37,354 nt of DNA, from the NCBI GenBank assembly GCA_900128565.1, contig LT635940.1:1-37354 (forward strand), written 5' to 3'. A model generated the notes under the pieces. The model made no database searches, was not told where the DNA came from, and worked only from the letters and a program-made list of their open reading frames with translations. This DNA comes from Stramenopiles sp. TOSAG23-6. Lineage: Eukaryota. A program made the translations under genes and the position numbers. Shown here piece by piece: positions 2,895 through 37,354 of the stretch; the first letter of the stretch is position 1; every line of letters starts with the position of its first letter.

Positions 2895-4427
2895 ATGATT
2901 TCAAGAAGTTTTAACGAATTACCGTCACACGGTATGCTCTTGTATCAGTCACACATCAAACCACAACCTGAAACAGTACAGGATCAAGTACAGAAAGAGC
3001 TTCGCAAAGCCCTAGGCGAATCTTTACCTCCAAATAAAGGTGATGCCAGTATACCTTTAGATGTTTTAAATTTATGCTCACGTTTACATCCATATAATTG
3101 GAAAGTTTCAAACCATTCGAAAGAACGTCTTGGAAAGCTTATAAGTCAAAACATATCTTCAGGTGTACGGAGTAGTGGAGATCGATTCCAAAATTGTCCA
3201 GATCCAGTTTTGCCAGGAACATTTATTCAGGGTGAAAATCATAGAAAAGTAGCCAAAATAAGGAAACATTTTTCTGGGATATTTCGTTCCACAGCTCCAG
3301 GTAAATTGAACGAAACGGGAGATACAAAACGCGATAAAGCTGGTAATACATCACCCATGATGCCAGATATTACTAGACCTAATTACACAATGATAAGAAA
3401 CAATATCCATCTCATGCAAACACCAGCAGAACTTGCAGTGCATGTTTTAAATCGACGAAATAAAGCTTTAGCAGCTGCAAAGGCCTCTGAACTTCGTTCA
3501 ATATATCCGGCACCTCACTATATTTACGATATGTCTAATACAATGGAAAATACAATGAAAGAAAGATATTTGAAAAACTCTTCACCCATACCGACATCAA
3601 TTTCAAATAATACACATAAAAAAAAACGGGTTAAGAGTTCTCGCTTGCATTATACTCCAGAGATTCGATTAATAAATAATATACCAAGGAATTTGATGCA
3701 TCGAAACATTTCTACTGCACAGCGTAGATATTCTTACAATATAAAGCATGGAAATAAAAGAAAAAAACAGGGGGGAAATATTCACAAAACAAACTCTTTA
3801 TCTTCATCCAAAGTCGAATCTAAACGTTCGCATTGTGAAGACACGAATTCTAAAAGTTCGGATTCAAATGATGTGAATTCTAATGGTGGGAAAATACACT
3901 TTCGAGTACTAGGAAATACTGGAATCTCACAAAGACAAAGTAAAAATACAAAAACAGGGTTTTTAATAAATCGTAGTAAGCACACAGAGGCTGGTTTTTA
4001 TAAAAAACGGACTAACATTCCTAGATCAAATAATCTTTCTCGCTGGGCATCAACACAACGACAACCATCGAATATTTTTCGCCCTTTATCACAAAGATCG
4101 ATCCGTCCATTCAGTCCTGCACCATGGCATCATGTAGGTTTTCATCATTTCAATTTCATTTGATGTAAACAAAAACTTTGCACCTAACATTTTTTTGTTT
4201 TAAAACATTTTTTTTTCACATTACATGTACGTTTTCAAAATTAATTTCNAANTTAGNTTTTTTTTTCGTACGAAATTTTGTACCTAACAAATTTTGACTA
4301 TACTTTTTTTTTCACATAACATGATACTTCTAGAGGTTATAGTCATCCAGATTTTCCGGATTTTGATTTTCAATTACAAGGAAGTACGAAAGCACTTAAT
4401 GTTTCTGTACATGGACAGCACGAATAA
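2895..4427 (+). CDS. Hypothetical basic protein, ~447 aa after splicing; exons 2895-4133 and 4323-4427
   Basis: The long ORF runs into two tandem repeat elements; removing 4134-4322 continues in frame (PWHH-DTSRGYSHPDF...GQHE*) to TAA at 4425-4427. Confidence 0.7.
4134..4226 (+). mobile_element. Introner-like non-canonical intron, copy 1 (93 nt, GT...AT), diverged
   Basis: cat|GTAGGTTTTCATC...CTTTGCACCTAAC...TTTTTCACATTACAT; homologous to the other copies. Confidence 0.8.
4227..4322 (+). mobile_element. Introner-like non-canonical intron, copy 2 (96 nt, GT...AT), directly abutting copy 1
   Basis: GTACGTTTTC...TTTCGTACGAAATTTTGTACCTAAC...TTTTTCACATAACAT|gat; contains three N bases. Confidence 0.85.
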
Positions 4428-4480
4428 ATTCTAAAACAGTTTAACCAAATAAAAAAATATACATCATATATATATATATA

Positions 4481-6154
4481 TTATTTATTTTTTCCAAGAC
4501 AAACGATCGACATACAACTCAATTCAGGACCATTCTCCCCAATTAATTTATATCGACAACCTCCAGCCACCTTTTGTAATTGTTGATTACTCTTTTGAAA
4601 TTGAGAAAAAGGTGCAGTTACAAGGCGTTTGGAGGCAGAGTGTTGAGTGATTAGTAGCAGCGAACTGTACATATTATTCCTTGACGCAATTGAGTCCAAA
4701 TTTTGCTTCCATTTCGGATCACTTGAAGTACAAAATGTAAATCGATTCTCATTTCTTTGTAATACATTTGGCAAAGCTACACCAACAATAGTGCACCAGT
4801 GACTACGCCGTCCTTTGTTCAACACAGGCAAACATGATCCCGGTTCTGAATCATATGGTAAAAGAATCAGATTACCTTTTGTTATATTGGATATAATGCG
4901 TATAGGAGATATATTTTTCCATACTTGTGTTTGGACAATTTCAGATCGAAATGATGCAATATGTGCAAGATGGGCGGCGTTGAACATTTCTCCATCCATA
5001 GTATAACCAAATCGTATTCCTTTTGATAACACATTCTCATTTTCACCTTTTTCATTTTGTACAAATGTTTGAACTAGTGTTTCCTCTATATTACCAAGTA
5101 GTACAGAAGATTTGCTCAAAGACATGTCTTGAGGACTCACACTACATTGACTACTACACATTTTGTCATCGTTTTTTGTCATCACACTATTCGTTTTTGC
5201 CACCGAACCATTGGATTTTGAAATTGAAGTTGTGTACTGGGCGATATCTTCTATAACTCCCCAAATACCAATGGTGGCAGCTTCCCCATTCGTTTGAAAA
5301 TAACTTTGCCTCAATAATGATAATCTATAAAAATTTTCTACTGCAGAAATAGCACAAAATCCACACGTCGGTCCCATTTGATTATGATGGGGAGGAAGAC
5401 ATGTTATAATTCGCCAAGCTATTGGAGGAGGACACTTGAGAGTAGAACAATTTTTCACAAAAAAATTTATCCCAGAACAGATATCATCAATTATTTCTTG
5501 AAATGTTCGTTTTGTTGGCTGTTTTCTTTGGAAAACATGAGAAATACGCCGTTGTAGCCACACTTTCTCATCTCCAGTTTTCCCTGTATCATCAACAGAG
5601 AAAGTCAAATTATTTGACTTAGTGTATTTTCTTGACTTACTCTGAAGCATTGTTTGAAGTACCGCAAGGCCACTACTTTCACTATCTGGCTCTTTTGAAC
5701 GACGAAGAAAACGGAAAACTTTTTTTTTCGTAGTAAAAGAACTACTCTCTTCATAGCCACATGATTTGTAAAATCCATTTGCCAGTTTTGGTGAAGTACA
5801 AAGGCAAAGATGAGTCATACCTAACCTCTTTGCAACTACTTCTGCCTGAGAAAGTAGATAACGACCGATACCACGACGACGCCAATTGTTGTGTACAATT
5901 ACATTTGATAAAATTCCTTTTGCGCCTGAAATTTCACCTGCTCCATGTTTCAACCGAATATATCCAATGACAATGTTCTCAGGTGATACAAGAACATAAT
6001 GTCTACTTGATTTCACAGATTTCTGTAAACTTGATGTCCACGAAGAATGCGTCGGAGGCTGTTTCCATTGCTGAGCGAGAAGAGTTGCACAAGACGAAAT
6101 AAGAGGAAGGGTTAGCGGAAGAAATGAGAATTCCGACTCTATTCTCTTTGTCAT
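4481..6154 (-). CDS. Fusion of an NAA80-like GNAT N-acetyltransferase and an ACTMAP (C19orf54/UPF0692)-like cysteine protease
   Basis: N-terminal part: LISSCATLLAQQW, VIGYIRL, LSNVIVHNNWRRRGIGRYLL (acetyl-CoA motif A), FYKSCGY. C-terminal part: NQMGPTCGFCAI, GYTMDGEMF, LLPYDSEP, PVLNKGRRSHWC. One uninterrupted ORF; first ATG at 6154. Confidence 0.8.
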   Translation of the reverse strand: MTKRIESEFSFLPLTLPLISSCATLLAQQWKQPPTHSSWTSSLQKSVKSSRHYVLVSPENIVIGYIRLKHGAGEISGAKGILSNVIVHNNWRRRGIGRYLLSQAEVVAKRLGMTHLCLCTSPKLANGFYKSCGYEESSSFTTKKKVFRFLRRSKEPDSESSGLAVLQTMLQSKSRKYTKSNNLTFSVDDTGKTGDEKVWLQRRISHVFQRKQPTKRTFQEIIDDICSGINFFVKNCSTLKCPPPIAWRIITCLPPHHNQMGPTCGFCAISAVENFYRLSLLRQSYFQTNGEAATIGIWGVIEDIAQYTTSISKSNGSVAKTNSVMTKNDDKMCSSQCSVSPQDMSLSKSSVLLGNIEETLVQTFVQNEKGENENVLSKGIRFGYTMDGEMFNAAHLAHIASFRSEIVQTQVWKNISPIRIISNITKGNLILLPYDSEPGSCLPVLNKGRRSHWCTIVGVALPNVLQRNENRFTFCTSSDPKWKQNLDSIASRNNMYSSLLLITQHSASKRLVTAPFSQFQKSNQQLQKVAGGCRYKLIGENGPELSCMSIVCLGKNK

Positions 6155-6333
6155 CGTTTGGACTTTGAAAACACGTAAGTGAATGAAATTCAATGAATGA
6201 TTCAGAATGAATGAATTCAATCTTCAACGAAAATCATGACAGAAAGATTGAATTTGACAGAATCGTAAAAATGACAGCATTCATTCACAACATAAATATA
6301 ATAGAACACAAAGTAAAAACACAAAGAAACAAC

Positions 6334-10200: not shown

Positions 10201-11402
10201 ACAACTGTTAGAAGAGCTACAGCAAATCCAAACTTTCCAATTTGAGTTGCCATTACTTCAAGTTTCGATTCCAACACAGACGCCGCAATTCCTTCATGTT
10301 TTTCAACGACATACAATCTCTCAAGTTTAGCTGATTCATTCGTCCACAGTTTATCTTTGAGTTCAATATGAAAAGTTCTGTCATCAATTTCATCTTGTTC
10401 CAATGAAGTAACGGCGAAAACCTGATCGCCAATCTTCAACTCCAAACCTAATCCATCCTCTTCATGTCCACCACAGCCACAACAACCAGAAACAGCATCT
10501 TTCGCTAACATAATACGATCATCGAAACGATCAGAAACTTCAATGGAATCCGCAGTAAACGTAACCTGATTGCTATTCTTCGTTGTGACGCACTCACCAT
10601 CAAAAGGTATGTAGAGTGAATCACCAGATACTGTTGAACTGATAATTCCTGCCTGTGAATTAAGACCAACTGCAACAATAACCATCGCACCAGTACCCTC
10701 TTTGACTCCTGTACCTGATAAAATAAATGGGTGTTTATCCGGATCTTTTTTACATAAGTCAGACTCTCCCGTTAGCGAAGCTTCGTCCATTTTCAGACCA
10801 TCGCATTCGATTACTATGCCATCAGCATCTACAAGATCCCCATATGTTAGCTTTACAATATCACCAACAACAAGATCACATGAGAAAACTGCCTCTTCGT
10901 CAGCTGCTTCGCTGCTGATAAACTGCCCGTCTCGCCAAACATTAACCTTTTTTCGGGACATTTCTGCTTGCTGAGCAGCAAAACTTAAATTTTTCTTATA
11001 GTTTGTTCCAGAATCAACATTAACAACAACAATAACTGATAAGAGAATTGCGAGACCTTCAACCCATCCTAAATCAGCGGGGTCTTCAACGAAGAGACCA
11101 ATAATAAGCGAAATTATGGCACACGCGTTTAAAAGCATAATAACAGGATCGTTCAAAGCTTCCTTACAGAGTTCGAAATATGTTGGTAACTTTGTTTTAG
11201 GCAATTCATTTCGGCCAAATTGGCCTTCTCTCACACCCCTTCCAGTTTGACCAGTTGAGTTGATACCTTTCTTCGGATCAACTTTAAGTAGCTTACAAAT
11301 ACCAACAGCTCCTCCAAGTTTTGCAACATCGTCTGCTCCCCCTTCAGAATGTGCACACGTAATTCTCTTAAGCTCCGCATCTGTAATATCAAAAGAAGCC
11401 AT
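7290..11402 (-). CDS. P-type ATPase subfamily 2B (PMCA-type Ca2+-transporting ATPase), intronless
   Basis: SLTGES, VAVPEGLPLAV, ICSDKTGTLT, KGASE, TGDN, VTGDGTNDAPAL, LLWVNMIMDSFASLALATEPP, MQIFNEINSR. Confidence 0.95.
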   Translation of the reverse strand: MASFDITDAELKRITCAHSEGGADDVAKLGGAVGICKLLKVDPKKGINSTGQTGRGVREGQFGRNELPKTKLPTYFELCKEALNDPVIMLLNACAIISLIIGLFVEDPADLGWVEGLAILLSVIVVVNVDSGTNYKKNLSFAAQQAEMSRKKVNVWRDGQFISSEAADEEAVFSCDLVVGDIVKLTYGDLVDADGIVIECDGLKMDEASLTGESDLCKKDPDKHPFILSGTGVKEGTGAMVIVAVGLNSQAGIISSTVSGDSLYIPFDGECVTTKNSNQVTFTADSIEVSDRFDDRIMLAKDAVSGCCGCGGHEEDGLGLELKIGDQVFAVTSLEQDEIDDRTFHIELKDKLWTNESAKLERLYVVEKHEGIAASVLESKLEVMATQIGKFGFAVALLTVVIMITRFSIESYAMNTEPDGHKLITNPNVPGSKKYGVGAKRGFFTEEMCFCDRSKTKYTCNAEGTVCKDANGETITYKEHGKKESKNLPACNAKAHFTAATSGFDDCCGVAWKNVDVKDGTKSLYGPEMVYYRWMSASDFKNLMGYTCPGDLFAESDFKHILEYFITGITILVVAVPEGLPLAVVLALVYSSRMMSKPPNNCFVRNLNSCETMGNATAICSDKTGTLTQNIMTVTDVYVGGTRMKMRDLKDSVQSKNGLNQQLTTTMLNALILNTQQQTDVKKTNDPKFTSGFERMGNATECALLQCAIELDVKSIDKPFSELKKRVRNPAAYNWPAGCKLFPFNSKFKRMTIVVKSDDTPGSRVYSKGASEKILQYCTKVMNADGTTSNIDDALRAKITAQLGSMADEALRTIGVAFRDMSKTPSQWAAETERQKAMEEKNQDGEENSLSCGDEDVVKDLTLVGIFGIRDPVRPEVPEAIRVCKRAGITVRMCTGDNIRTARAIAIKCCLIPSETYMMDAKLKSGVASKVVVEGEELGPSMSQHFGEPQRKVLNGPIVGMEGQLFREMVTLEEPEQDGNDINRRVLDKLWPQLRVVARCAPRDKYILVRGMMESKLYLKKRMGPTREDGTINPYYNKPGFGRYKEVVAVTGDGTNDAPALAKADVGFAMGIAGTEVAKAASKIVLMDDNFTSIVQAVKWGRNIYDSISKFLQFQLTVNVTAIGIAFIGAVSEGVSPLTAVQLLWVNMIMDSFASLALATEPPQDELLKRKPIGSDKPLITTRIRRFICTSALYQIVWLLIFLFAPKSLGIDDNGAEGDKGVITVHYSMIFTVFVFMQIFNEINSRMLQDEVNVFKYITQNPIFCIIWVGTFVVQVFMTQFGGIVMKTVGLSLTNWLIVFGIGGGQLVWGILCRIVIRPSVFGLFKCPSKRETEQAEEAKRQAWQVAAGSQINGTMTIEQVMRKEQSRFS

Positions 11403-11756
11403 TATTATTAATGGTAAATCCTTCTATAGAAACAATGATTATTCGCGAAACAAACACTTGCAGCCACACACCAGTCTGCAAACAAAAGAGATCAAATTAA
11501 AAGAGCAGCTTTCGTTTTGAAGGAGATCTCGTTTGTGTCTATTTTCGAAAAACGAGAGAGACGAGAGCAAGAGCAAATGCAAATGAGAATCTTAAAAAAG
11601 TACCGCGAAAAAAACTACACTTTTCAAAAAAATTGTTGTTTTTCGTGTGTCATCATATTATTTGCGTCACACGTGTCATTTCGATTCTTCTTTTTGCTAT
11701 TAAGTTGAACTTGAAGTTAAACTTGAACATACAAAATTTAATATATTACACTAATC

Positions 11757-12140
11757 ATGTATAGTAGATTCTTTATCAGATCAGGCATGGCTGTACATCA
11801 CTGTGTACGACAGTCTCTCAATGGAAATATGACACCCTTGCGTATGAATTTAAGTTTATCTGCGGATGTGTTACGAGCACGTCTCAATGAATTTCAAGAT
11901 TTATTCGTGGAGGCTAGACTATGTATCGAAGATGCTACTGAGTCTCTTGAAACGACATACTTCGAAGCTGACCTTGCTGAAGCGAAAACCAATGTCGATG
12001 CTGCTGTTGATGCATACAAGGCTTTATTGGCGGAAGCTGATGAAAATCAGCGCGGCGAAATAGATAGAGCAAATGGTATGAAAGTAAAACAGTTAGAGGC
12101 GGAGTTTAAATCTGTTGCAGAGACATATTTACATGAATGA
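11757..12140 (+). CDS. Small helical protein with a possible mitochondrial presequence
   Basis: 127 aa; Arg-rich N-terminus lacking acidic residues, then a helical FQDLFVEARLCIEDA.ES.ETTYF segment. Confidence 0.65.
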   Translation: MYSRFFIRSGMAVHHCVRQSLNGNMTPLRMNLSLSADVLRARLNEFQDLFVEARLCIEDATESLETTYFEADLAEAKTNVDAAVDAYKALLAEADENQRGEIDRANGMKVKQLEAEFKSVAETYLHE

Positions 12141-12250
12141 CCCCATAAAAATAAGTCTTACAAATTATCTATACATTATTTAGTACACACCCAATAAAAT
12201 GCAAATTATTTTAAATTTATTTAATGTGCCATATTCTTATAGTAAATTTA

Positions 12251-13720
12251 TTAATCACAAGCGGGGGTGGTGGTTGAAAAGAATGAAGTTATTTTTTTGG
12301 TTGCAACTCGAGGTCTTTTTGAATCTTTCGTTTTCTTTTTATTTTTTCGCTTCACCCCACCAATTTTAATTCCAGCGAATGTAAAAGCTTTACGTGCACA
12401 CGTTGTGACTCCAACATCAATGAGATCATTCATAGACATCCACTTAACATTTGCAGAAATATCACCGGAAGAAGAATTAATTTTCTCAGATAGAGGAATT
12501 TCTTCAGATATACTAATTTTTTCAACACTCATATGATGGCGACGATGTGAAAATGTATGTACAACAACACCTAAATCAGTAGCATTATCTTCATTATGAA
12601 ATACATCCCCAAATACTTTCTTAATTTGATTCATAGTAGCAGCTCGGCGAACCGTAATATTAGGTGGAGGTTGTAACTCTATTTTATCCAAATCTAATGA
12701 AGGAAAAGGCTCCCACTGTCCGGCTAATAAACCTGTTGGAGGTCGCTGTTGGGCAAGTACCCGTCCAGTTGAAGTTGCCTGAATGACACAAATAGCACGA
12801 CAAACATCCTTTGGTGGTTTTTTCTTTACGGGTAACGGAAATCTTGTTACTTTTAGTGAAGAAATATCGCCACTTGTGCTACTATCTGCAATGATTTTAG
12901 CTTTACATACATTTTGTAAAGGACATATTTCACATTGTGCTACTTTAGGTGTACATATAGTTGCTCCTAGCTCCATTAAAGCTTGGTTGAAAACTCCTGG
13001 GATATTCATATAGTTATTACTACCACGTTCTTGGTAAACTTCTTGTTCTTCAAGCTTTCGACTAGCAACAGCGGGAGGAGGGACTAGTTCAGCTGCTAAT
13101 CGCCAACAAAGCTTATGCATCATTGGATCTTTCTTTGTGAGGGCTATGGCTCGAAGCCTAGCAAATACTCTAATGACATTACCGTCTACAACTGGATCTG
13201 AATTTCCAAACGCAAGAGACGATATCGCCCCAGCAGTATAAGCACCAACACCAGGTATCGATTTTAGTTCCGTATTAGTTGAAGGAAACTTCCCATTCCA
13301 TTTCTCAACAATCATTTTAGCACCCTTGTGTAGATTCCTTGCACGTGAGTAATAACCCAATCCAGCCCATTGGCTATTTACTTGATCAGGGGTTGCTGTC
13401 GCCAAGGCCTCGACGGTGGGAAAGTGTTTCATCCAATTTCTGTAGTACTCTATTACGGTTGCTACGCGAGTCTGTTGAAGCATTACTTCAGAAATCCATG
13501 TTTCATAGGGAGAAATAGTACCATTAAGATTCGACGGCTGGTGCTCCACATTTACGGTACCAACCGAAGTACAGTTTTCATCACAAACGTCTCCCCTCCA
13601 AGGCATTTCACGACGATTTAACTTATACCAAGAGTGTAGCTGACTACGTATCATATCAACATCTTTTTTGCTAAAATTATTCGTGGCAACTAAATCTTCA
13701 ATATCCTTCATTCCAGACAT
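12251..13720 (-). CDS. MUTYH: A/G-specific adenine DNA glycosylase (MutY/MUTYH)
   Basis: PYETWISEVMLQQTRV, WAGLGYYSRARNL, helix-hairpin-helix PGVGAYTAGAI, VDGNVIRV, [4Fe-4S] motif CTPKVAQCEICPLQNVC, NUDIX-like GLLAGQWE and HTFSH, C-terminal PIP-box-like KKITSFF. Confidence 0.95.
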   Translation of the reverse strand: MSGMKDIEDLVATNNFSKKDVDMIRSQLHSWYKLNRREMPWRGDVCDENCTSVGTVNVEHQPSNLNGTISPYETWISEVMLQQTRVATVIEYYRNWMKHFPTVEALATATPDQVNSQWAGLGYYSRARNLHKGAKMIVEKWNGKFPSTNTELKSIPGVGAYTAGAISSLAFGNSDPVVDGNVIRVFARLRAIALTKKDPMMHKLCWRLAAELVPPPAVASRKLEEQEVYQERGSNNYMNIPGVFNQALMELGATICTPKVAQCEICPLQNVCKAKIIADSSTSGDISSLKVTRFPLPVKKKPPKDVCRAICVIQATSTGRVLAQQRPPTGLLAGQWEPFPSLDLDKIELQPPPNITVRRAATMNQIKKVFGDVFHNEDNATDLGVVVHTFSHRRHHMSVEKISISEEIPLSEKINSSSGDISANVKWMSMNDLIDVGVTTCARKAFTFAGIKIGGVKRKNKKKTKDSKRPRVATKKITSFFSTTTPACD

Positions 13721-25963: not shown

Positions 25964-26006
25964 AATGAAAGAAAAAAAGTTAATGAAAAAATTGTAATAG
26001 TCCATA

Positions 26007-27374
26007 TCAAGATCCCTTCACTTCCTTATTTGCACCATACGCAAAAATTAGAAGTCCAGTACATACAACGGACAATCCACCCCAACAGTAGATTGGAGAA
26101 ATTCCAGCCTCACCTTTCCCTCCCATAATCCATGGAATTGACAGAAAAAAGTTTTGTAGGGGTAGTGAAAATGCACTCGTTAAAAAACTAATGAGAGCTC
26201 CGTTACCACCAGTAATACCTGCATGTGTACCATAATTCACTAATATCAAAGCACCAACGATAAACGCAGCACCTAAAGGTGAAAATTGTAATACAAGTGC
26301 AAGTGATTGCTGACAATGCACATTTTTTGATGAGAACAGACACTTTGCTCCTTTACTATAGTCATTAGAAAAATGTTCTTGAAGACCAATGAATCCGCTA
26401 TTTGTTAGCACATATGTACTCTCTACAGCAATATTGACAGGTACTGATACACTATTCACTAAAGCAACAAGTAACGAAATCCGCATAAGAACTCCTGGAA
26501 CACTTCGCCTAGCTTCTTGTTCAGCCCGGCGACGTAAACGTTGACTACGAGCTACAGCTCTACTCGAATCAACAGTTTCATCCATTAAACCATCGCTTTC
26601 TACATCGCTAGTATCTAAATTACGCACTGATGCAACCACTGCCTCCGCAGTTACCCAAGCTGAACTAGTAGAAGCTGCTAAATTAGCTTCTGCATCATCA
26701 ATCTCTGCTGCAATACTTTCTTTTTCAAATGCAGATTCCACCAAGACAAAAAATAAAGCTTGTGGAATGGTACTCAAAATGTAAACAATTACCCATATGA
26801 TATCAATATGATTTAATGAATTCAACTGCGAAGAAGAAAACACAGAAACTGCAACACCAACACAAATGATGAATGGCCCTAATAGCATCATTTTTGTATA
26901 GTACTCAGAAGGGCATCCTCGAATAATCCACGCAATCAATAAAGTAAAAGGTATAACAGATTGACCTGCGACAACAAGTATATTTGAAAATTCGTTATCT
27001 AACCGATCAATACAAAGAATCATCAGAGTATTTTGTAATCCATTCAAACCACCAAGTAAAAGTATTGTTTTCCTATGAAGTAGAAGTCCCCTAGTTGCAT
27101 GTAATGCGGATATTTTTAAGGACGTTGCTTTTGATATACGGTAGTGCACAAAAGGAATTAATAAAAATGCAAATACGAGGCACACCAGAATAATTGACAC
27201 TGTATTAAGAGTGTTGACAAAGAATGGAAATGACTTCAAAGCATGAAGCTCCTTGTACATCCAAATAGTACTAATAACGGAAACAATTACATATAAGACA
27301 GACGAAACTATGAGAGCAAAGTTTCCAGACGGTACCGAATTTGATGAAGAGTTTCCTAGCAAAGAAGAATGCAT
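26007..27374 (-). CDS. CRT-like (drug/metabolite superfamily) membrane transporter
   Basis: About 10 hydrophobic segments; GQSVIPFTLL, STIPQAL...ESAF, GAKCLF, SAFSLPLQNFFLSIPW resemble the CRT/CLT family. Confidence 0.7.
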   Translation of the reverse strand: MHSSLLGNSSSNSVPSGNFALIVSSVLYVIVSVISTIWMYKELHALKSFPFFVNTLNTVSIILVCLVFAFLLIPFVHYRISKATSLKISALHATRGLLLHRKTILLLGGLNGLQNTLMILCIDRLDNEFSNILVVAGQSVIPFTLLIAWIIRGCPSEYYTKMMLLGPFIICVGVAVSVFSSSQLNSLNHIDIIWVIVYILSTIPQALFFVLVESAFEKESIAAEIDDAEANLAASTSSAWVTAEAVVASVRNLDTSDVESDGLMDETVDSSRAVARSQRLRRRAEQEARRSVPGVLMRISLLVALVNSVSVPVNIAVESTYVLTNSGFIGLQEHFSNDYSKGAKCLFSSKNVHCQQSLALVLQFSPLGAAFIVGALILVNYGTHAGITGGNGALISFLTSAFSLPLQNFFLSIPWIMGGKGEAGISPIYCWGGLSVVCTGLLIFAYGANKEVKGS

Positions 27375-27970
27375 TGTATATCTGTGAAAATATCTATGAA
27401 GAAGAAGTCATACTTTAAAATTGAGCACGAAGTCGAAGTCGCAAAGTGCAAAAACCGACTTTTGTTTTGACCGGGGCTTTTGTGTTGACCTTTCGTTTTT
27501 TTTATTTGAAAATCATGTGTTTTTTTTCTTACATTAAAATTTGTCGAGAAAAGCGAGAAAAGATTATAAAATGTCAAAATTATAGAAAAAAGTACTTGTA
27601 TAATATTGCATATAGCCAATACTGTAACTTTAGTTCAAGCATAATAAAAACCACTGGCAACAATACAGGAAATTGCTTTCGATTAATTATGGAATGTTCT
27701 ATTGAAAAGGTAAAAATTTTTGTGTGTTGATTGATAAAAGATTTAAATAAATGTGATTATTATGTTTGGTTATATTTATATAGATTTTTGTAAAAGAAAT
27801 GTTGTTCTATTAAAAACACCTATCAATCATGTAAAGCATTGATTAAAACCTATGGCTCATGAAAGGTGTGTGTGTTTTTAACCAAACAGTAGACTCAAAG
27901 TGGGGACTCTCATCTCAGCGCAAGTAAAACACGACTTGTCACGAAATCCGACGTTTTCACTCACCTGGAG

Positions 27971-28651
27971 TTAGACTTTATATTCCGTACTCGCGAGCCA
28001 AGATTGATACAAGTCCTTATCATCCCTATAATTTTTAGGAGCCTTAGGATCTTCTTCGAGCTGCTGCTGTTGTCTGGCAAAATCCCGCAGTTGTTTGAAA
28101 GACAATGTACGCGCTGTCTTTTCTGCTACGTCTGCATTGTCGCCAAGTTTGTTCAATCCGAATTGAGTAGCTAGGCGTTGTCGTGCTTGTAGCATTTTCA
28201 TGTGAGTTACCAATTCTTCTTCCAAAGAGATCCTCCGTCGGCTTAGCTGATCGCTAAAACGTTCATTTTCAATACCCCACCCTTCTACGAGAACCCTCAT
28301 CATGGCACTAAGTAGTGGCTGGAATTCCAATCGAACACGTTCAATAAGAGTTGTTGGCGCAAGTGCCGCATTTTCAAGAGGTTTGGGCATACGACCGAAC
28401 TGTTCAAGGTCCGAAGGGCTAACGGGATAACGCATAAGACCATGCCGTTCATTTCCTGGTATTTTCCGAACAGCAACAAAACCGTCCACTTCGTCGTCCG
28501 TTGGTTGCACCTCCGGTTCTGGAGCCAAAGCGCCGCCTCCCAATCCAAGGCTTTCCTGTAATCCCCGGATGTATTTCATGGCTGATACGTTATTGAAACA
28601 TGTTACAAGCATACTGATCATGATAAGTGTTACTGATTTCATATTTGTCAT
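27971..28651 (-). CDS. Hypothetical protein with a probable signal peptide
   Basis: 226 aa ORF with a hydrophobic N-terminus (SVTLIMISMLVTCFNNVSA). Confidence 0.65.
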   Translation of the reverse strand: MTNMKSVTLIMISMLVTCFNNVSAMKYIRGLQESLGLGGGALAPEPEVQPTDDEVDGFVAVRKIPGNERHGLMRYPVSPSDLEQFGRMPKPLENAALAPTTLIERVRLEFQPLLSAMMRVLVEGWGIENERFSDQLSRRRISLEEELVTHMKMLQARQRLATQFGLNKLGDNADVAEKTARTLSFKQLRDFARQQQQLEEDPKAPKNYRDDKDLYQSWLASTEYKV

Positions 28652-28911
28652 TGTGGATATTGTTAAAAATGCCGTAAAATGTTTCCACTTGTAGATACCT
28701 TAACTCATGAACTGGACACGAACANACACCAATAAATACAAAACTTTAAACGGTTCAGTCAATTGTTACCCGGTACCCACGAAATCGTGTCAAAAGAAAA
28801 CAAAAATTCAGCGTGACGAAACCTCGTGTAGACTGTGGCTTACTTACAACACTTTCACCTTTCCATTACCTTTTTCTCAAGGTGGTAAAGTGAATTGCCG
28901 TCGTGCTTAGA

Positions 28912-31900
28912 ATGACAAATACCCCTCGTGGTACTCAGGCGCGTTTTGGTAGTAGTGGCTATGAAAAGTCATTATACGGGCGAAAAAACTATTCTTTTGG
29001 AGACCAGAAGAAAAAGCTCGTCTATCATGAGGACCGACCTTCACGAATAGCGTGTGTGAAATTTGGTTTGCTGTCTGGTCTAGAAATGGCGCGTATGTCT
29101 GAGATGCATGTATGTTCGAGCGAGCTTTATCAGCTTTCAACTCGTGAGCCCAGCCGTAATGGTTGCATAGATAGACGTCTAGGTGTCTCTGATAAGCGAA
29201 GTAAGTGTGAAACATGCGGTAAAAATTTAGCAGATTGCATTGGTCACTTTGGTCACATACAGCTCGCTCTCCCAGTGTTTCATATAGGATATTTTAACAC
29301 CATTATCAAAGTGCTTCAAAACATATGCAAAACTTGCTCTCGTACGCTCCTCGATGATAAAGAAAGAACATCATATCTTGCTCAAATGAGATCAAAATCC
29401 ACACATGTTTTAAGAAAACAACAAATAATTAAAAAGATCACAGCTCGATGTCGTCGTGTAACTCGGTGTCCTCACTGTGGTGCAATCAACGGCCCTGTAA
29501 AAAAGATAGCAGGTGCTCGTGGATTACGTGTTATTCATGAAATATTTAAAGTTAAGCAAGCTGTAGAACTAAAGCAGGAGTTTCGTGAAGAATTCGAGGA
29601 GGCTTGTCAAGCGAATCCAGAAATTGAACAACATATTAACAAAGCTCAACATGATCTTGACCCTGCGTATGTATATAACTTATTCAAAACCATTAAAGAC
29701 CACGAATTGGATCTATTTTGGTTGTCTCCTGAACTATCTAGACCAGAGAATTTATTACTCACACATATTTTAGTGCCCCCCGTGTGTATAAGACCTTCCG
29801 TCCAGATGATGGCTGGTGCATCCAATGAAGATGATTTGACCATGGCTTTGAGAGGTATAATAGAAGCTAATCAAGAACTTCAGTTTCATTTAGAAAAAGG
29901 TGCTGCAACAAAACATGTTGTTGAAGCGTGGGACCATTTATCTATGCAAACAGCCCAATATATTAACGGGGCATTACCCGGTTTACCTCCTGCTGTACGA
30001 AAAAGTATAAAACCTATCCGAGGCCTGTGCCAAAGACTCAAAGGTAAACAAGGCCGTTTTCGAGGCAATCTTTCTGGTAAACGAGTAGATTTTTCTGGTC
30101 GAACAGTCATTTCTCCTGATCCTAATTTGCAAATTGACCAAGTAGCCATTCCAAGGCGTGTAGCGATTCGATTGACCTATGTATGTTTTATTTTTTTTTT
30201 AACAAAAAAATCGAGTTTTTTTTTCGTACGAAATTTTGTACCTAACGTTTTTTTTTTGAAATATTTTTCCAAAATACATCCAGAACGAGTCAATAATCGA
30301 AATATTAAAAAAATGAGAGCTGCCGTTCTAAATGGTGAACTTAACTGGCCTGGTGCAAATTTTGTAAGAAAGAAAGGCAAACGTCCAATATCATTGTTGT
30401 ATGCAGATAAAAAGCGAACTGCTAAAGATCTTAAAATTGGTGATATTGTTGAACGTCATTTAATTGATGGTGATGTAGTTTTGTTTAATCGCCAACCTTC
30501 CCTTCATAAGATGTCAATTATGTCTCATTGTGTAAAGGTAATGCCATGGAGAACTTTTCGATTTAATGAATGTGTATGCTCTCCATATAATGCCGATTTT
30601 GATGGTGATGAGATGAATATTCATGTGCGTTTTTATCATTCATTCCAAATTTAAATGTTTTTTTTTCATAGATAATTTTGTACCTAACAAATTTGAAATT
30701 TTTGAAATATTTTTTATTACACATGTTCCACAAACTGAAGAAGCGCGTGCTGAAGCATTTACTCTGATGAATGTGAAAAGAAATTTAATTACACCTAAAA
30801 ATGGTGAGCCTCTAGTAACGGCAACACAAGATTTTCTCACGGCGTCATTTTTAATGACTGCGCGTGACAATTTTCTTGATCGGGATGCGATGTGTCAAGC
30901 TTGTTCCCATATGCAAGACGCTGGCTTTCACGTTGTCTTACCTCCACCTACGATTGTTGCACCAGTTACATTATGGACGGGTAAACAATTATGGTCAGTT
31001 TTATTACGTGCGTGTATCGGAAAATCCAAAGAATTGAACATTATTGCCAGAGGCAAATGTTTTGTAAGTCCGAATGAACGCGTGGGGTATCAAGACTTGG
31101 ATAATTGTTTATGCCCAAAAGATGGTTGGGTAATTGTTCGTAATTGTGAAGTTTTATGTGGCAGACTAGGAAAGGGGATTTTAGGTGGGAAGAAACAAGG
31201 AATTATTTTCACTATTGTTCGTGATCATAGTGTTGAAGCTGCTGCAATGATGATGGTAATGATGACAAAATGTGTCACACGCTGGCTGACAGGTCACGGA
31301 TTTTCTATTGGAATCGATGACGTTTCACCAACACAGCAACTGACAAAGCGTAAAGCGAAAGTATTGGAAGAGAATTTTGAAAAATGTCGTGTTAAAATTG
31401 ATAAATACAAAGCAGGAACGCTGCAAATGAAGCCAGGTTGTAACATGGATGAGTCGCTTGAAGCTGATGTAAAAGGTATACTTAGTGCTGTTCGTGAAGA
31501 AATGGGTTCTATGTTGATGGCAACTCTGCCTAATTATAATTCACCTTTTATTATGGCTACATGTGGTTCTAAAGGATCTGCCTTAAATATATGTCAGATG
31601 GTTGCGTGTGTTGGTCAGCAGGTAGTAAATGGTGAACGTGCTCCTGAAGGTTTTGTTCAACGTACTTTACCGCATTTTGGTATTAATGCTCGCGAACCTG
31701 AGGCAAAAGGTTTTGTAGCTAGTTCATTTTATACCGGACTCGATGCAATGGAGTTTTTCTTTCATACAATGGGGGGTCGAGAAGGTCTTGTCGATACTGC
31801 AGTAAAGACAGCTGAAACAGGATATATGTATGTTTTATTTTTTTTTCAAATTCGATTTTTTTTTTTTGAAAATTTTGTACCTAACGAATTTTTTTCTGAA

Positions 31901-34003
31901 ATATTTTTCCAAAATACATGCAACGTCGTTTAATGAAAGCTTTAGAAGATTTATCTTTACAATACGATGGTACAGTGCGAAGCAGTACCAAACAAGTAGT
32001 GCAATTTACATATGGTGATGATGGTCTGAATGTTTGTTTCCATCATGAATTTTTTATCTAATTTTTTTCATACGAAATTTTGTACCTAACAAACATTTTG
32101 AATTTTTTTTAAATATTTTTTCACAACACATCCATCCTGTATGGAAGATAATGAACGACCTGTAGATTTGAATCGTTTATTACGAATTGTTAGTGCTGAG
32201 TTTTCCGTTGGGCAAAAGTTTTCTTTAAGTGGACCAGGGATGTCACCAGAACAAATTTCTGCATCAGCAGAGTCGTTTATTGCATCACCAAAATTAAATA
32301 TATTACCCCACATTCGTAAATTTGTGGAAGAAATTAGAGAATTTAGCAAAAATCTGTGTGATAAAGTGAACAAAGGTGTACTGTCCTGCGGTTTACAAAA
32401 TTTTAATAATAGTAAAAGTTCAAAGAAAAAGAGTAAATCAAAACAAACGAAACCATCGTGGGGCAGTTGGCCTACTGTGTCAAAAATAAGAGCCGATTGG
32501 CAGCACGAACTATCTGCATTTGAGGCATCATCAAAATGGCGCGCACAAGCTGCAGATAAAACAAAACAAGCTTGGATGGAAGAAGGATCTCGAATCTTTG
32601 AGAACGTACACGCGATTCATACGGAAGTATTAGATGAAGTATGGAAACGTGCATTAATTAAGTATACTATGGCTACAATGGAATCAGGTGAGGCAGTTGG
32701 TGCTGTTGCTGCTCAAAGTATTGGTGAACCTGGTACACAAATGACATTGAAGACATTTCATTTTGCTGGTGTTGCTAGTATGAATGTCACTTTAGGTGTT
32801 CCTCGTATTAAGGAAATAATCAATGCTACAAAAAATATATCAACCCCAATTATTACAGCAGAATTGCAATCTGATCAAAGTGAAATTGCTGCGAGAATTG
32901 TGAAAGCTCAAATTGAAAAAACTACTTTAGGTGAAGTATCAAAATCTATGAAGGAAGTGATTGGTCCTGGTTTGTATTGTATTGAAATTACTCTAGACAT
33001 GGAAGCGATCCGTAAATTGTATCTACAAGTGGATGCATTCTCTGTTTGTCAAGCAATTATAAATGATTCTAAACTAAAATTGAAAGCTCAACACTTAGAG
33101 CGTGAAGGTGATGACGTCATTCGTATATATACACCATCGGAAATTGTGAGGATGGCACGCGCAAAAACGCATGGTCCAAAGCCTCCTGTCAACGGTAATC
33201 GTAATAGTCAATATTTTAATAGTCAAATATTGAAAGAGCATTTACCAAGTGTCATAGTTCAAGGTATTAAAGATGTTACTCGTGCTGTTATTAACAAAAT
33301 TGATGCTACAGCAGGAAATCGAGCTCGTTATAATTTGCTTGTTGAAGGAAACAATATGCTTGATGTCTTAGGTACAGATGGTATAGCTGGTACAAAAACT
33401 ACAAGTAATCATATCATGGAAGTTGAAATTACTCTTGGTATCGAAGCGGCGCGAACAAAAATTATTCATGAAATTAAGTATACATACGGCAGTTATGGAA
33501 TCACCGTCGATGAACGTCATTTGATGCTTCTTGCAGATGTTATGACGTATAAAGGTGAAGTTCTTGGTATTACTCGATTTGGTATAGCAAAAATGAAAGA
33601 TAGTGTTCTAATGCTTGCATCTTTTGAAAAAACGAGTGATCATTTATTTGATGCAGCTGTACATGCGAGAGAAGATGAGATTGAAGGTGTATCAGAATGC
33701 ATAATCATGGGTATTCCAATGCCAGTCGGTACCGGCCTTGCCAAGTTAGTCCATAACCCAGAAAGGTGTGCGTTAGATAGTATGCCATACCCGGTAATGA
33801 GAGATGTTACACCATTAACTATTGGTGCTAGAAATCAGAAGTTATGTGCTTATAAAGCTAAAGAAGAGGAGTACCATAGAAATAGACGACCAGACTTATT
33901 ACTCAATATGGATAAAGATGATTTGATGTTGAACGCTCATCACAATGAATCGAAAAATATTAAAATTGAAAACACAATTGTAAAGGAAGAACCAGTACTA
34001 TAA
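28912..34003 (+). CDS. RPC1: DNA-directed RNA polymerase III largest subunit, 1566 aa; exons 28912-30180, 30280-30624, 30725-31827, 31920-32031, 32132-34003
   Basis: CETC...[105 protein letters not shown]; no heptad CTD. Exon lengths sum to 4701 nt, a multiple of 3. Confidence 0.95.
30181..30279 (+). mobile_element. Introner-like non-canonical intron, copy 4 (99 nt, GT...AT, in frame and stop-free)
   Basis: tat|GTATGTTTT...AAAATACAT|cca; splits the conserved LTY-PERV. Confidence 0.95.
30625..30724 (+). mobile_element. Introner-like non-canonical intron, copy 5 (100 nt, GT...AT)
   Basis: cat|GTGCGTTTT...TTTTGTACCTAAC...TTACACAT|gtt; splits [17 protein letters not shown]. Confidence 0.95.
31828..31919 (+). 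mobile_element. Introner-like non-canonical intron, copy 6 (92 nt, GT...AT)
   Basis: at|GTATGTTTT...AAAATACAT|g; splits the bridge helix [17 protein letters not shown]. Confidence 0.95.
32032..32131 (+). mobile_element. Introner-like non-canonical intron, copy 7 (100 nt, GT...AT)
   Basis: aat|GTTTGTTTCCATCATG...TTTTGTACCTAAC...TTCACAACACAT|cca; splits [15 protein letters not shown]. Confidence 0.95.
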
Positions 34004-34094
34004 TGTGTGCAATTATTTAATTATATTTATAAATGTACATCGAACGATAATGTGTGCAATTATTTAATTATATTTATAAATGTACATCGAACGA
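34001..34094 (+). repeat. Perfect 47-bp tandem duplication at the convergent ends of RPC1 and the methyltransferase
   Basis: TAATGTGTGCAATTATTTAATTATATTTATAAATGTACATCGAACGA at 34001-34047 and again at 34048-34094. Confidence 0.95.
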
Positions 34095-35000
34095 ATCGTC
34101 ATCACATGCATTTTTTACATGTTCAGGAGTAATCCAACCTAATAAGCTCTTCCCTTGTTTAAATTCCTCAGTGCGGCGTAAAATCGGGCTAATAATTTCA
34201 GGTGCATATATATCAAGTTCCTCGCACAAATCTGCAAATGCACAGCCTGAAAGAGAATATGGTATATTTGTTTGTACTCCTTCAGTGTCTTTTAAATCAT
34301 TTTTCTTTTTATAACCCCAAAATAGTAAATTTGGATTAATGGCTAATATCATTACTTTATCAAAAACTTCTAGATATCTATCCGTGACAATTTTCATCAT
34401 TTCCCGATTTGCAATGACATTGCACAAACATGATCCTCCAGGTTCAAGTACCGAATATGCTGCATACAGAGTTGTCATCTTCACCACACTTGCTGGTGGT
34501 AATTCAAGAGGAGCATTATCTATTGCGTTTTCTGCAGCTATATCGAGTATAATCAAATTATATCGGTGTCTTGAATGAACATGTCTATTCATTCTCTTCC
34601 AATCGCAACCAAAAGAGGTAGGAAAAGATGTTTTTGATTTTTTCGAACTTTCCGAACTCTTTGAAATTATATCAATTTCATTTTCTACAGCAGAGGCTGC
34701 ATCTTTCAAAAAGGAAACACCACATTGACAGATTACTTTAATTTGTGATCCAACAGCCATACCAAAAAAGTTGACAGCAGCATAAATGACTTCAGGCGAT
34801 AGATCTACAACATTTATTTGACAAAACGGAAAAGATGCCGCAATTGCATTCGGTACAGCCCCACCACCACATCCAAGAACAGCCACTCGTAATTGCTCTT
34901 TTTCTTCATACCTACAGGAATTATCTTTCGTCAATGCACCATGTTGTTCTAATAATGTCACGATACTAAGAGCAAATGCCTGGTTAATTTCGAATGGTGC
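34074..35000 (-). CDS. Class I SAM-dependent methyltransferase / spermidine-synthase-like domain (METTL13 C-terminal-like); terminal exon, own 5' exons not evident
   Basis: VAVLGCGGGAVP, VVDLSPEVIYAAVNFFG, YNLIILD, LEPGGSCLCNV; no in-frame ATG before the SAM-binding motif. Confidence 0.75.
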   Translation of the reverse strand, partial: APFEINQAFALSIVTLLEQHGALTKDNSCRYEEKEQLRVAVLGCGGGAVPNAIAASFPFCQINVVDLSPEVIYAAVNFFGMAVGSQIKVICQCGVSFLKDAASAVENEIDIISKSSESSKKSKTSFPTSFGCDWKRMNRHVHSRHRYNLIILDIAAENAIDNAPLELPPASVVKMTTLYAAYSVLEPGGSCLCNVIANREMMKIVTDRYLEVFDKVMILAINPNLLFWGYKKKNDLKDTEGVQTNIPYSLSGCAFADLCEELDIYAPEIISPILRRTEEFKQGKSLLGWITPEHVKNACDDDSFDVHL

Positions 35001-35090
35001 ATGTATTTTGGAAAAATATTTCAAAAAAAATCGTTAGGTACAAAATTTACTATAAAACAAAATTCGAATTTAAAAAAAAATAAAACATAC
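35001..35090 (-). mobile_element. Introner-like non-canonical intron, copy 8 (90 nt, GT...AT)
   Basis: agt|GTATGTTTTATTT...TTTTGTACCTAAC...TTTTCCAAAATACAT|gca. Confidence 0.9.
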
Positions 35091-36679
35091 ACTCATTTGG
35101 AAAATTCTCGTAATCAAACCATTGTCCCAATTCACAAAATTTGTATTGTGAAAAAATATTTTACATACGAAATTCGTTAGGTACAAAATTTCAATGAAAA
35201 AATATAAATTCGAAATTCATGATGAAAACATACTGTTTGTGTTCTTGTGGGTAATTATATGTACTCCATGACCCAGTGTATGTTGTTTTCGCAGACATTG
35301 CAGCAATCGCAGCGGATTTATGTATTGTGAAAAAATATTTCAAAAAAAAACGTTAGGTACGAAATTTCGTACGAAAAAAACCTTAAATAAGAAATTCATA
35401 TAAAACGTACATCATCTGCTACTTTCAGAATTCGATCTTTAATCGCAACGCTTCCTTCTACAAATAAAGGCATAATTGTAGATTTTAACCACTCACAGCA
35501 GGTACATGATGGTGCCATTTTGGCGTAAATATACCATTGCATGAAAGGGCCAAAGACGACGAAAATGACTAAACAATTTAAAAGCATTATAGGAGGCATC
35601 CACATCAAAACTTTACTACGATTATTGTTTGGATCATATACACGTTCAAGTTGTCCATGGAAATCTAGATTTGGGCGGAGTTCAAATTCAGGTTCGTATG
35701 GATTAGGAATCTCTTCGTTGACACCTTGACGAGGTAAATTCCATCGATGACAAATGACATGACAATATCTTGTCCAATATTGTTTTAGTAAAGGTCCCCA
35801 AACACACGTAATCAATATACCTGTTATAGTTAATAACATCACATAAGCATTCCAATGAAAAAGAGAAACCACCCATAGACATGCACCAGTAATTCCTATA
35901 GGTACTATAAGAATTGTGTAGAATTGCACAAATGCAAAGTATAAAGCTACACGTTCGCCAAAATGATTTCGGATTTCGTCAACAAGCCAATCCGCACGAG
36001 CCCGAGCAACAGATGGAAATAAAGTACAATTTTTATTCATATACATTTTATGTAGCCACTTATTCCAGATTTGATCTTGTAGCGGATACATTGCTTTTAT
36101 ACCCAATTCAGGGCAAGAGTGTGCTAAAATTTCAGATTCACTGCCGACAACTGTGCCTAGTGCACGGCGTATAATTCTATCAGTTAAACGCAATTCCTCA
36201 GCATGAGAAAATGTCTGATGTTCAACTTCACCCATTGAACTATCGGTATCTATAATTCCGTATTTAATACGTCTGGCGCGTTCTACTCGCCTTCTCTCGT
36301 GCCTCAAAAGATTATGATCATCAATGCGCCGTTTACCTTTTCGACCGGTAGCCGATAAAAGGACTGTCAGTGTGTGTGCTGTTTCAACAGTTTTTTCTAA
36401 GAGACCGATATGAATTCCAGCTCTACACATTGTTTGTAAGGTCAAAATATGTCGTTCGATAGTATCATGGTCGATATATATATGAGCATCCTGTCCATCT
36501 TTCTGTTTTAGTTTCGACTTTGGTACACAATCTAAAATTAGCGCTATACTATAGCGTAGCCTGTCTTTTGGTGAAGTATCTAAAATATCAAAAAGAGAAC
36601 CGCTGCCGATTTTGCCTACATCAGTTGTTGGTGGCTTCTTTTGTGAAGCCAAAGACATTCCACGCAAAATTTTTGGCAT
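35091..36679 (-). CDS. Anoctamin/TMEM16-like protein, N-terminal half only; exons 36679-35411, 35319-35234, 35140-35091
   Basis: YPLQD, VDEIRNHFGERVALYFAFVQFYT, TM1-TM2, WTRY...RWNL, TM3; the C-terminal TM bundle is absent. Confidence 0.75.
35141..35233 (-). mobile_element. Introner-like non-canonical intron, copy 9 (93 nt, GT...AA)
   Basis: ca|GTATGTTTTCATCATG...TTTTGTACCTAAC...TTCACAATACAA|a; removal reads HKQFCELGQW in frame. Confidence 0.85.
35320..35410 (-). mobile_element. Introner-like non-canonical intron, copy 10 (91 nt, GT...AT)
   Basis: gat|GTACGTTTTATATG...TTTCGTACGAAATTTCGTACCTAAC...TTCACAATACAT|aaa. Confidence 0.9.
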
Positions 36680-36993
36680 TTTAAATGTTCCAGATGAAAT
36701 TACGACATATTAGTTCATTCTTCGTGGTTGTTCTTTTGAATGCCCGGAACTTCAAGAGAGAATATAACTAATAGCTACTTGTTAACGTTACGTGTTAGCG
36801 TTACTATGTAGACTAGACGACATAGGTCGGACATAAAAAACCGTTTCATCGGTGTTTTTCTCGGTTTCGTATATTTTTTCTAAGTCACACACAAGTCATC
36901 ATAGTGCGTAAACCTACTATAGGCAAGGTGTCATTGATATATATATATATTCTATATACTTAAAATGGATTAGTTTTATGAATAAATCGAAAG

Positions 36994-37255
36994 ATGAGTA
37001 GACGTGGGCTAGAAAAAGATAGATTACCAGCAATTAGAAGAGGAGATCACCATCCCCGATCCCAAGCAACCAAAGAAGAATGGTCTCAGTTTCTACGGAA
37101 AAGGTACAACAGAAAAAGTACAAAGAATGGTGTTCGAAATGCATTAATGGACACCAATAGAACTACAGAGCAACTTCGTGTTCTTTCTATATGGCTGCGA
37201 GGAAGTAGTATTTGTCCAGATAGCGTCAGCGACAAAGCTATCTTGAAAGTTGCTT
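36994..37255 (+). CDS. First exon of a hypothetical protein (3'-partial)
   Basis: ATG-initiated ORF that runs into element copy 11. Confidence 0.55.
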
Positions 37256-37354
37256 GTACATTTTATATGAATTTCTAATTTATTTTATTTTTGGTTTTCA
37301 TACGAAATTTCGTACCTAACGATTTTTTTGTTGAAATATTTTTTCACAATACTT
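37256..37354 (+). mobile_element. Introner-like non-canonical intron, copy 11 (99 nt if complete, GT...TT), ending at the window edge
   Basis: tt|GTACATTTTATATG...TTCATACGAAATTTCGTACCTAAC...TTCACAATACTT. Confidence 0.85.

Follow-up and report, generated by a model that had tools for sequence, protein, structure and literature searches.

Introduction

Nearly all spliceosomal introns end in AG. Introners, the short repeats that form whole introns in Micromonas and Aureococcus, are described in PMC9860276 as ending in AG and as carrying target-site duplications (TSDs) of 3–9 bp and clear terminal inverted repeats. They lie within genes in the sense orientation, with the element carrying one splice site and the duplicated target forming part of the other; for the IE1 element of M. 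pusilla, the account in PMC11282704 has the 3′ AG co-opted from the TSD. Here we describe a family of 11 inserts in contig LT635940.1 of Stramenopiles sp. TOSAG23-6, a stretch of 37,354 nucleotides (nt) that was analysed whole and is called the window below. The family resembles introners in repetition and placement and may resemble them in shared splice-site supply. In contrast to introners, its direct repeat measures 1–2 nt and is usually AT, its introns end in AT, and its inverted termini span approximately 4–6 nt. We consider it fairly probable, at roughly 0.65, that the copies represent an introner-like element of a MAST-3 stramenopile that is removed by the major (U2-type) spliceosome at a 3′ site other than AG.

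Several other described systems depart from the AG rule. Introns of the animal Fritillaria borealis that derive from miniature inverted-repeat transposable elements (AG-AC, AG-AT) are likewise transposon-derived and have non-AG 3′ ends that include AT; as presented in PMC11282704, they occur alongside a smaller number of GT-AG introns, and an adapted major spliceosome is believed to excise the non-canonical ones. Those introns also lack a 5′ GT, whereas the stramenopile copies have a strong GTAYGT together with CTAAC. Another marine protist, Amoebophrya, has repeated introns with direct repeats at their borders and inverted repeats that join their ends. These are characterized in PMC7789003 by inverted repeats of 8–20 nt, direct repeats of 3–5 nt, inconsistent terminal dinucleotides and no detectable U1 small nuclear RNA (snRNA), whereas in our family the corresponding repeats measure about 4–6 nt and 1–2 nt and go with uniform termini and a canonical 5′ site.

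The nonconventional introns of euglenids share non-canonical borders, TSD-like junction repeats and end-to-end pairing (PMC11282704), and intermediate introns that mix conventional and nonconventional features are reported there as well (PMC3935182). The nonconventional class is portrayed in PMC11282704 as having no pyrimidine tract, pairing between positions +4 to +6 and −8 to −6, very variable length and no single sequence family. The copies studied here do have a T tract, their terminal helix is paired at 83% with covariation that is not significant, and circular products are indistinguishable from tandem copies. Finally, the terminal pair itself is known from rare GT-AT introns of animals and Physarum. 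According to PMC1557818, U12-type machinery splices GT-AT introns, and human and mouse share a conserved U2-type GT-AT intron in DGCR2; for Physarum, spread of U12-type introns by a transposon with a TA target has been proposed (preprint 10.1101/2020.10.12.336362). Such introns occur singly or as a minority class bearing U12-type motifs, whereas in the window GT-AT is the rule throughout a repeat family with U2-type motifs.

The first-pass annotation of this DNA, made from its letters, had placed the architecture in no described family. We likewise found no description of it in the open-access literature, where no paper turned up that connects introners or non-canonical splicing to MAST-3 or to marine stramenopiles, but the claim needs to be narrowed because GT-AT is on record in rare single introns (PMC1557818; Physarum preprint). 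The architecture is unusual, not without precedent, and on our reading a variant of transposon-derived non-canonical introns. Judged by sequence, the family appears introner-like yet would fail the splice-site rule of the introner curation in PMC12130899, which accepts 5′ GT, GC, GA or AT with 3′ AG or AC. Unlike the introns of Fritillaria, Amoebophrya and euglenids, it seems to have kept a canonical 5′ site and branch box and to have lost the terminal G alone.

Eleven copies of one insert family

All 11 related inserts that had been reported were found again at their coordinates and in their orientations, each 90–100 nt long. A 16-nt core, AAATTTTGTACCTAAC, has 12 matches in the window at three or fewer mismatches, compared with 1.02 expected and with a largest count of four in 100 shuffles. 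Eleven of these matches are the copies (seven exact, three with one mismatch and one with two). The twelfth, at 22559–22574 with three mismatches, was rejected as a family copy, and a profile made from the copies returns exactly the other 11 (E values from 6.5e-18 to 6.6e-10; next match at 0.12). This profile search of the window found no intergenic copy and no antisense copy, which bears out the earlier claim of genic, sense placement: all 11 copies run in the sense of the open reading frame (ORF) that they interrupt (two-sided p = 0.001). The window itself is AT-rich (34–43% G+C) and gene-dense.

From 5′ to 3′, the copies (named below by their first coordinate) share a GTAYGT-like start, a T-rich stretch, a box ending in GTACCTAAC, a spacer, a AAATATTTTT box and a terminus. 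The terminus is ..ACAT in nine copies, ..ACAA in one and ..ACTT in one, so that the original tally of CAT nine times, CAA once and CTT once is unchanged on recheck. The proposed common start GTAYGTTTT is exact in six copies and GT opens 10 of them, whereas copy 24548–24647 starts with GG. Pairwise identity among the copies ranges from 61 to 92%, and the closest pairs sit in different genes (31828 and 35001 at 92%, 24548 and 30181 at 89%). This range of identity and the very high summed depth of the family in metatranscriptome contigs are the grounds on which a recent spread may be supposed.

A perfect 12-nt palindrome, TTTCGTACGAAA, is present just upstream of the branch box in copies 4227, 24548, 30181 and 35320. 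With the TTTYGTAC that follows, it can form a hairpin ending at CTAAC, and in copy 35320 a G:C pair replaces the G.U pair of this stem.

As in described introner families, there are many similar copies that each constitute a whole intron, with 11 in the window and family sequence in metatranscriptome contigs. Their removal also restores coding sequence. Homology backs exact removal at seven of the 11 junctions, namely four in RPC1, one in RMT2 and two in an anoctamin-like gene.

Exact removal restores conserved proteins

Four copies interrupt an essential gene, that for RPC1, the largest subunit of RNA polymerase III:

28894–34003, + strand: RPC1 gene, five exons with four family copies between them, recognized by Pfam domains and homologues
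30181–30279, + strand: family copy, RPC1 intron 1; 99 nt, phase 0; junction restores LTY/PERV (slash at the junction), gap-free against six homologues
30625–30724, + strand: family copy, RPC1 intron 2; 100 nt, phase 0, GTGCGT...CACAT; restored motif conserved in six of six homologues
31828–31919, + strand: family copy, RPC1 intron 3; 92 nt, phase 2; junction restores a conserved motif
32032–32131, + strand: family copy, RPC1 intron 4; 100 nt, phase 0, GTTTGT...CACAT; junction restores YGDDGLN/PS

When the four inserts are removed, the gene becomes a single 1572-codon frame with a terminal stop only, compared with 111 and 166 stops in the other two frames. All four junctions restore conserved motifs without gaps relative to six distant homologues. 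Intron 1 contains no in-frame stops, and ORF 28894–30654 reads through it. The nearest AG downstream of this intron lies 4 nt inside the exon, and its use would destroy the conserved PE. Retention of intron 1 would add 33 residues and would not truncate the protein.

A fifth copy lies in the gene for protein arginine N-methyltransferase 2 (RMT2), where its removal yields one 402-residue ORF whose junction matches 120 homologues:

24548–24647, − strand: family copy in RMT2 (24263–25571); 100 nt, phase-0 intron, GGATGT...ACAT

Three further copies are found in an anoctamin-like gene:

35320–35410, − strand: family copy, 91 nt, phase 0; separates exon 1 (35411–36709) from exon 2 (35234–35319)
35141–35233, − strand: family copy, 93 nt, phase 2, with ACAA at its end; separates exon 2 from exon 3 (35091–35140)
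35001–35090, − strand: family copy, 90 nt; at the end of the anoctamin-like frame

A homologue of 714 residues (P0361; EukProt g3546.t1), which is 61% identical to the anoctamin-like protein, aligns with exon 2 in frame 0 and with exon 3 in frame 1, and only removals of 91 and 93 nt yield both. Read in frame 1, exon 3 gives ..WFDYENFPNEC, which corresponds to ..WFDYTNFPESC in the homologue. We also considered a 94-nt copy at 35141 and an 89-nt GT..AC copy at 35320, which would join exons 1–4 of 34074–36709 in one frame; the frames of the homologue rule this solution out.

The same homologue is uninterrupted at the positions of copies 35320 and 35141. A JGI contig of 2994 nt (P0242) encodes RMT2 at 66% identity, uninterrupted at the position of copy 24548. 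If these two records derive from genomic DNA, the introns at 24548, 35320 and 35141 are lineage-specific.

Copy 35001–35090 appears to be a special case. The anoctamin-like ORF covers only positions 1–141 of the 460 in Pfam Anoctamin, and its frame stops five codons past this copy, while the homologue continues for about 110 residues that are not present in the window. Downstream lies an unrelated methyltransferase-like ORF (34074–35000) in a different frame. The copy probably marks a chimeric join at a repeated element, produced by assembly or recombination, and a mis-join would be the simplest account.

Borders without AG and a terminal repeat of exon bases

The earlier statement that no AG occurs from CTAAC to the end is true for all 11 copies, which is weak evidence alone given that these tails contain only 1–3 G residues each. 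Because the last exon base or bases equal the last bases of the insert, each border is ambiguous by 1–3 nt and can slide over this distance with no change in the mRNA. The termini thereby allowed are GT-AT, TG-CA or AT-AC and never AG, and no protein-compatible choice of border ends in AG.

If the borders are placed two bases upstream, the same family and the same mRNA would be described as AT...AC introns, a reading that we regard as unlikely while granting it some weight. AT-AC is reported as an accepted pair for U12-type and some U2-type introns (PMC1557818; PMC11282704), and seven of the 11 copies follow an exon that ends in AT and themselves end in ACAT, such that AT-AC borders give an identical mRNA. 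Copy 24548, however, tells the registers apart, because RMT2 exon 1 ends in GT (last codon GGT, glycine) while the insert ends in AT. The AT-AC register would turn this codon into GAT (aspartate). Among the 120 homologues, the junction residue is Gly in 78, Leu in 12, Val in 11, Ala in 6, Thr in 3, Ser in 3, Met in 2, Asp in 2, Lys in 1 and Glu in 1, with one gap, and the closest relative (66% identity) carries Gly. The GT...AT register is therefore favoured. Moreover, the AT-AC register would produce GT-AC, CA-AC and TT-AC in three other copies, and it puts the GTAYGT motif two bases off the cut. From the RMT2 copy, then, the introns are best read as starting at the G of GTAYGT and finishing after AT. 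In this register the ends are AT in nine copies, AA in one and TT in one, and thus neither AG nor AC.

The last intron base equals the last exon base in all 11 copies, including a single A/A case, and the last two bases agree in eight, including a single TT/TT case. Where the two-base repeat fails, it does so at position −2, and the intron base there is always A. The intron end differs from AT twice (..AA at 35141 and ..TT at 37256), and on both occasions the deviant base mirrors the exon flank (CA and TT, respectively). The left flank in the host is AT at six of 10 sites, compared with a background AT dinucleotide frequency of 0.094 (p = 1e-4). This pattern would fit a TSD of 1–2 nt whose right copy serves as the intron end, plus selection for A at −2. 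By analogy, it may follow the same logic as the TSD-derived 3′ AG that PMC11282704 describes for Micromonas introners. Were such an element to insert at an AG target, the outcome would be a normal GT-AG intron with ACAG as its end; both canonical introns of the window (580–695 and 21825–22226) end in ACAG.

We propose that a short, non-autonomous mobile element inserts into genes and that each insertion would create one intron. The element itself would bring the 5′ splice site (GTAYGT), the branch site TACCTAAC, the T-rich tract and a terminal ..TAC, and the last one or two intron bases would copy the exon bases directly upstream, in the manner of a TSD. The intron would end in AT rather than AG because the duplicated exon bases, usually AT, form its end. 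The first cut is predicted before the G of GTAYGT and the second after the duplicated dinucleotide, 33–42 nt beyond the branch A, which would bring back the original coding sequence. An introner-like nature had been suggested at first pass, and it is supported in part by the repeat family, the exact removal needed at seven of 11 junctions, the sense orientation and the U2-like motifs; from these we infer splicing itself, the spliceosome as the cutter, its choice of a non-AG 3′ site and the origin of the copies by transposition.

Splice signals and pairing of the intron ends

The U2-type donor and branch motifs that had been noted are indeed present. Ten of the 11 copies begin with GT and 10 have G at +5, in agreement with a GTRNGT-like 5′ site, and every copy has CTAAC (CTRAY consensus) followed by a T-rich tail. 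The distance from the branch A to the intron end is 33–42 nt. In none of the copies is there CC at +5/+6, as the U12-type 5′ consensus RTATCCTT would have it, and the branch spacing is not that of U12-type introns, whose TTCCTTRAC branch element sits close to the 3′ end. The branch spacing, +5 G, CTAAC and T-rich tail fit U2-type and not U12-type introns.

A non-spliceosomal or auxiliary mode of removal, in which pairing between the intron ends would act as the guide as proposed for euglenid nonconventional introns, is in our judgement improbable. Such a route would account for the pairing of exon −2 to intron +4 with intron −6 to −1, which is seen at 55 of 66 cells (83%) across these six terminal positions and includes one compensatory G:C pair in copy 30625. 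The terminal helix also closes the minimum-energy fold in five of the eight copies folded, and RNA contigs contain joints from a 3′ end to a 5′ start (30277 to 31825/31826), as circles would give. Most of this pairing, however, is due to conserved sequence, since shuffles average 77.5% pairing and 54 of 500 of them reach the covariation score. Whole-copy RNA folds of the eight copies have z scores of +1.0 to −2.2 against shuffles, with energies not below shuffles in most copies and no convincing overall structure. Tandem copies such as 4134/4227 explain the joints just as well, and a 5′ splice site, branch box and T tract would be unexpected under this route, the euglenid class being described in PMC11282704 as having no pyrimidine tract.

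The copies could also be U12-type (minor-spliceosome) introns whose consensus has shifted and which a transposon has spread, as has been suggested for Physarum, but we consider this quite unlikely. GT-AT ends are tolerated in U12-type splicing and make up 7 of the 66 non-canonical U12-type introns of this kind recorded in PMC1557818 and, in the Physarum preprint (10.1101/2020.10.12.336362), 17% of 1,425 non-canonical introns, mostly U12-type; the GTAT start and the CCTAAC of the branch box also loosely resemble RTATCCTT and TTCCTTRAC. Yet G, the U2-type base, stands at +5 in 10 of 11 copies. A T-rich tract follows the branch A, which is 33–42 nt away from the intron end, compared with 9–12 nt for U12 branch sites in Physarum. 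The GT-AG intron at 580–695 has the same 5′ motif, and an Rfam scan of the whole 37 kb returned no family at gathering score and no snRNA gene.

Family sequence in seawater metatranscriptomes

RNA data came from three seawater metatranscriptome runs of two studies, which contain 5–10% of the sampled words of the stretch. Their contigs were compared with positions 17355–37354, a range with nine copies, and 15 of 38 joints were listed. Between 1060 and 1197 contigs per run align to this range, of which 533–671 fit two places. Summed depth, which is not equivalent to copy number, is 24–2485 in bins that hold copies and at most 7.4 elsewhere, and at position 30248 there are 35–40 contigs per run with a depth of 10,474–22,275. 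The family is clearly abundant in these seawater communities. The contigs cease to be similar at 30279/30280 and start to be so at 31826/31827, the borders AT/GT...ACAT/ (slashes at the cuts). The joints from the ..ATAC end of a copy to the ATGT.. start of a copy (30277 to 31825/31826), seen in two runs, could represent tandem copies or circles.

The ordinary intron at 21825–22226 serves as an internal control. A joint from 21824 to 22227, which skips 402 nt (CT..AC on the + strand), is present in one X3 contig with a shorter side of 126 letters. Other contigs cross the border of this intron unspliced, which means that precursor RNA or DNA is present in the libraries. A 153-letter X3 contig places letters 2–78 on 35411–35487 and stops exactly at the last base of the exon (35411). 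A search with RPC1 exon 2 for transcript-derived fragments gave a best match of 66% identity and none from this organism.

Several observations weigh against our proposal that the copies are spliced by the U2-type machinery. An AT at the 3′ end is a poor substrate for known major spliceosomes. Copy 24548 begins with GG instead of GT, the two-base repeat is absent in three of 11 copies (GT/AT twice and CA/AA once), and the terminal inverted repeats extend just 4–6 nt, with covariation that is not significant (54 of 500 shuffles). Four of the 11 junctions (4134, 4227, 35001 and 37256) are beyond the reach of homology. Among the 15 of 38 joints listed, none crosses any of the nine copies, at an exon depth of 0–7 on the genes, where an uncovered part of a gene in the RNA contigs is evidence neither way. 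The same libraries contain unspliced or DNA-derived contigs, and the abundance of family sequence is thus no proof that the copies are transcribed. Lastly, no further family member was found among 272 loci from three public collections, a result that says nothing on absence.

That the inserts are never removed, as pseudogenes or assembly artefacts, or are excised from DNA instead of RNA, is very improbable: the assembly is imperfect (N bases in copy 4227 and the probable chimeric join at copy 35001) and the RNA contig sets are rich in unspliced family sequence, but the 1572-codon RPC1 frame is opened only by exact excision, independent runs of two studies have the family in their contigs, and strict sense orientation with splice-like motifs would be unexpected under DNA excision or artefact.

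Other copies and ordinary introns in the window

The remaining three copies lie in ORFs that have no match to a Pfam family, and two ordinary introns were examined alongside them:

4134–4226, + strand: family copy, 93 nt, GTAGGT...CTAAC...ACAT, E value 6.6e-10; first of a head-to-tail pair
4227–4322, + strand: family copy, 96 nt, contains three N; second of the tandem pair
37256–37354, + strand: family copy, 99 nt, GTACAT...ACTT, E value 8.3e-16; in ORF 36982–37255, no Pfam match
580–695, + strand: ordinary GT-AG intron; joins ORFs 2–613 and 664–1803 in frame; no CTAAC, ends ACAG
21825–22226, − strand: ordinary GT-AG intron in a La-domain gene, 402 nt; internal control, spliced in one X3 RNA contig

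Copies 4134 and 4227 abut head to tail with no exon bases between them, in the pattern AT-copy-AT-copy-AT. Their host ORF (2877–4133, no Pfam family match) resumes at 4323 and stops at 4425–4427, and the frame stays open to this stop when both copies (189 nt) are removed, as judged by reading frame only. Insertion of the second copy into the target duplication of the first would give this pattern, a scenario that we draw from the 11 copies of the window. Copy 37256–37354 finishes on the final base of the window, and its visible flank is the upstream exon only.

The claim that normal GT-AG introns occur in the same window also held, by the RNA joint for 21825–22226 and the in-frame union of two ORFs for 580–695. 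The latter intron starts with GTACGTTTTCAT, which resembles the 5′ end of several family copies. This likeness could reflect either the general 5′ splice-site context of the organism or an origin of 580–695 as an old, decayed relative of the family.

Published gene models and public searches

RPC1 exon 3 matches the EukProt model GSMAST32.ASY1.ANO1.927.1 at 1153 of 1167 aligned residues, and RMT2 matches the neighbouring model GSMAST32.ASY1.ANO1.926.1, identical over the aligned part; the next RPC1 matches come from labyrinthulids and other stramenopiles. Because both genes match its models, the window is from, or conspecific with, the GSMAST32 MAST-3 assembly. The link between the GSMAST32 prefix and PMC5778133 is suggested by name alone.

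All five RPC1 and RMT2 introns are mis-modelled in GSMAST32. Its RPC1 model translates into intron 1, reading the insert in frame. At the remaining RPC1 junctions and the RMT2 junction the models skip conserved residues, and they drop many stretches of continuous exon. By this comparison, the published proteome of this MAST-3 organism looks systematically damaged. The word 'intron' occurs zero times in PMC12614181 (Incisomonas), zero times in PMC8163842 and twice in PMC5778133 (both in the methods), counted in the article texts of these MAST genome papers.

Searches of public collections gave no further copies. The core motif has at least 117 loci in public metagenome contigs, with none among the matches listed showing the family layout, and 35 loci in viral contigs, with no family members. 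A two-box pattern has 120 loci in genome contigs, all in prokaryotic records. The profile search over the 272 public loci gave five partial matches only (E values of 0.005–0.009). All matches in these collections are due to chance.

Implications

If the copies are spliced as inferred, they would represent a natural instance, extending over an entire intron family, of a non-AG 3′ site used together with canonical 5′ and branch signals, and they would offer a clean test of how the second splicing step selects its site. They would also provide a stramenopile example of a transposon target duplication that sets the terminal bases of an intron.

MAST-3 is an abundant group of uncultured ocean protists. 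Gene finders restricted to GT-AG misread genes of the type described here, and in the GSMAST32 models the conserved catalytic region of RPC1 is missing or corrupted. As a result, MAST-3 protein catalogues may be damaged in a systematic way. Predicted genes number 3289 and 2694 in the MAST-3 assemblies of PMC5778133 (approximately 19–21 Mb), compared with 8018 in 31.8 Mb for MAST-4A1, and it is our conjecture that these introns contribute to the low MAST-3 counts. A bolder proposal, which we judge somewhat less likely than not, is that the MAST-3 major spliceosome needs no AG and takes any TSD dinucleotide after a fixed ..TAC located about 35 nt past the branch. In that case, the element could have seeded hundreds to thousands of GT-AT introns, which would also explain the fragmentary state of MAST-3 gene models.

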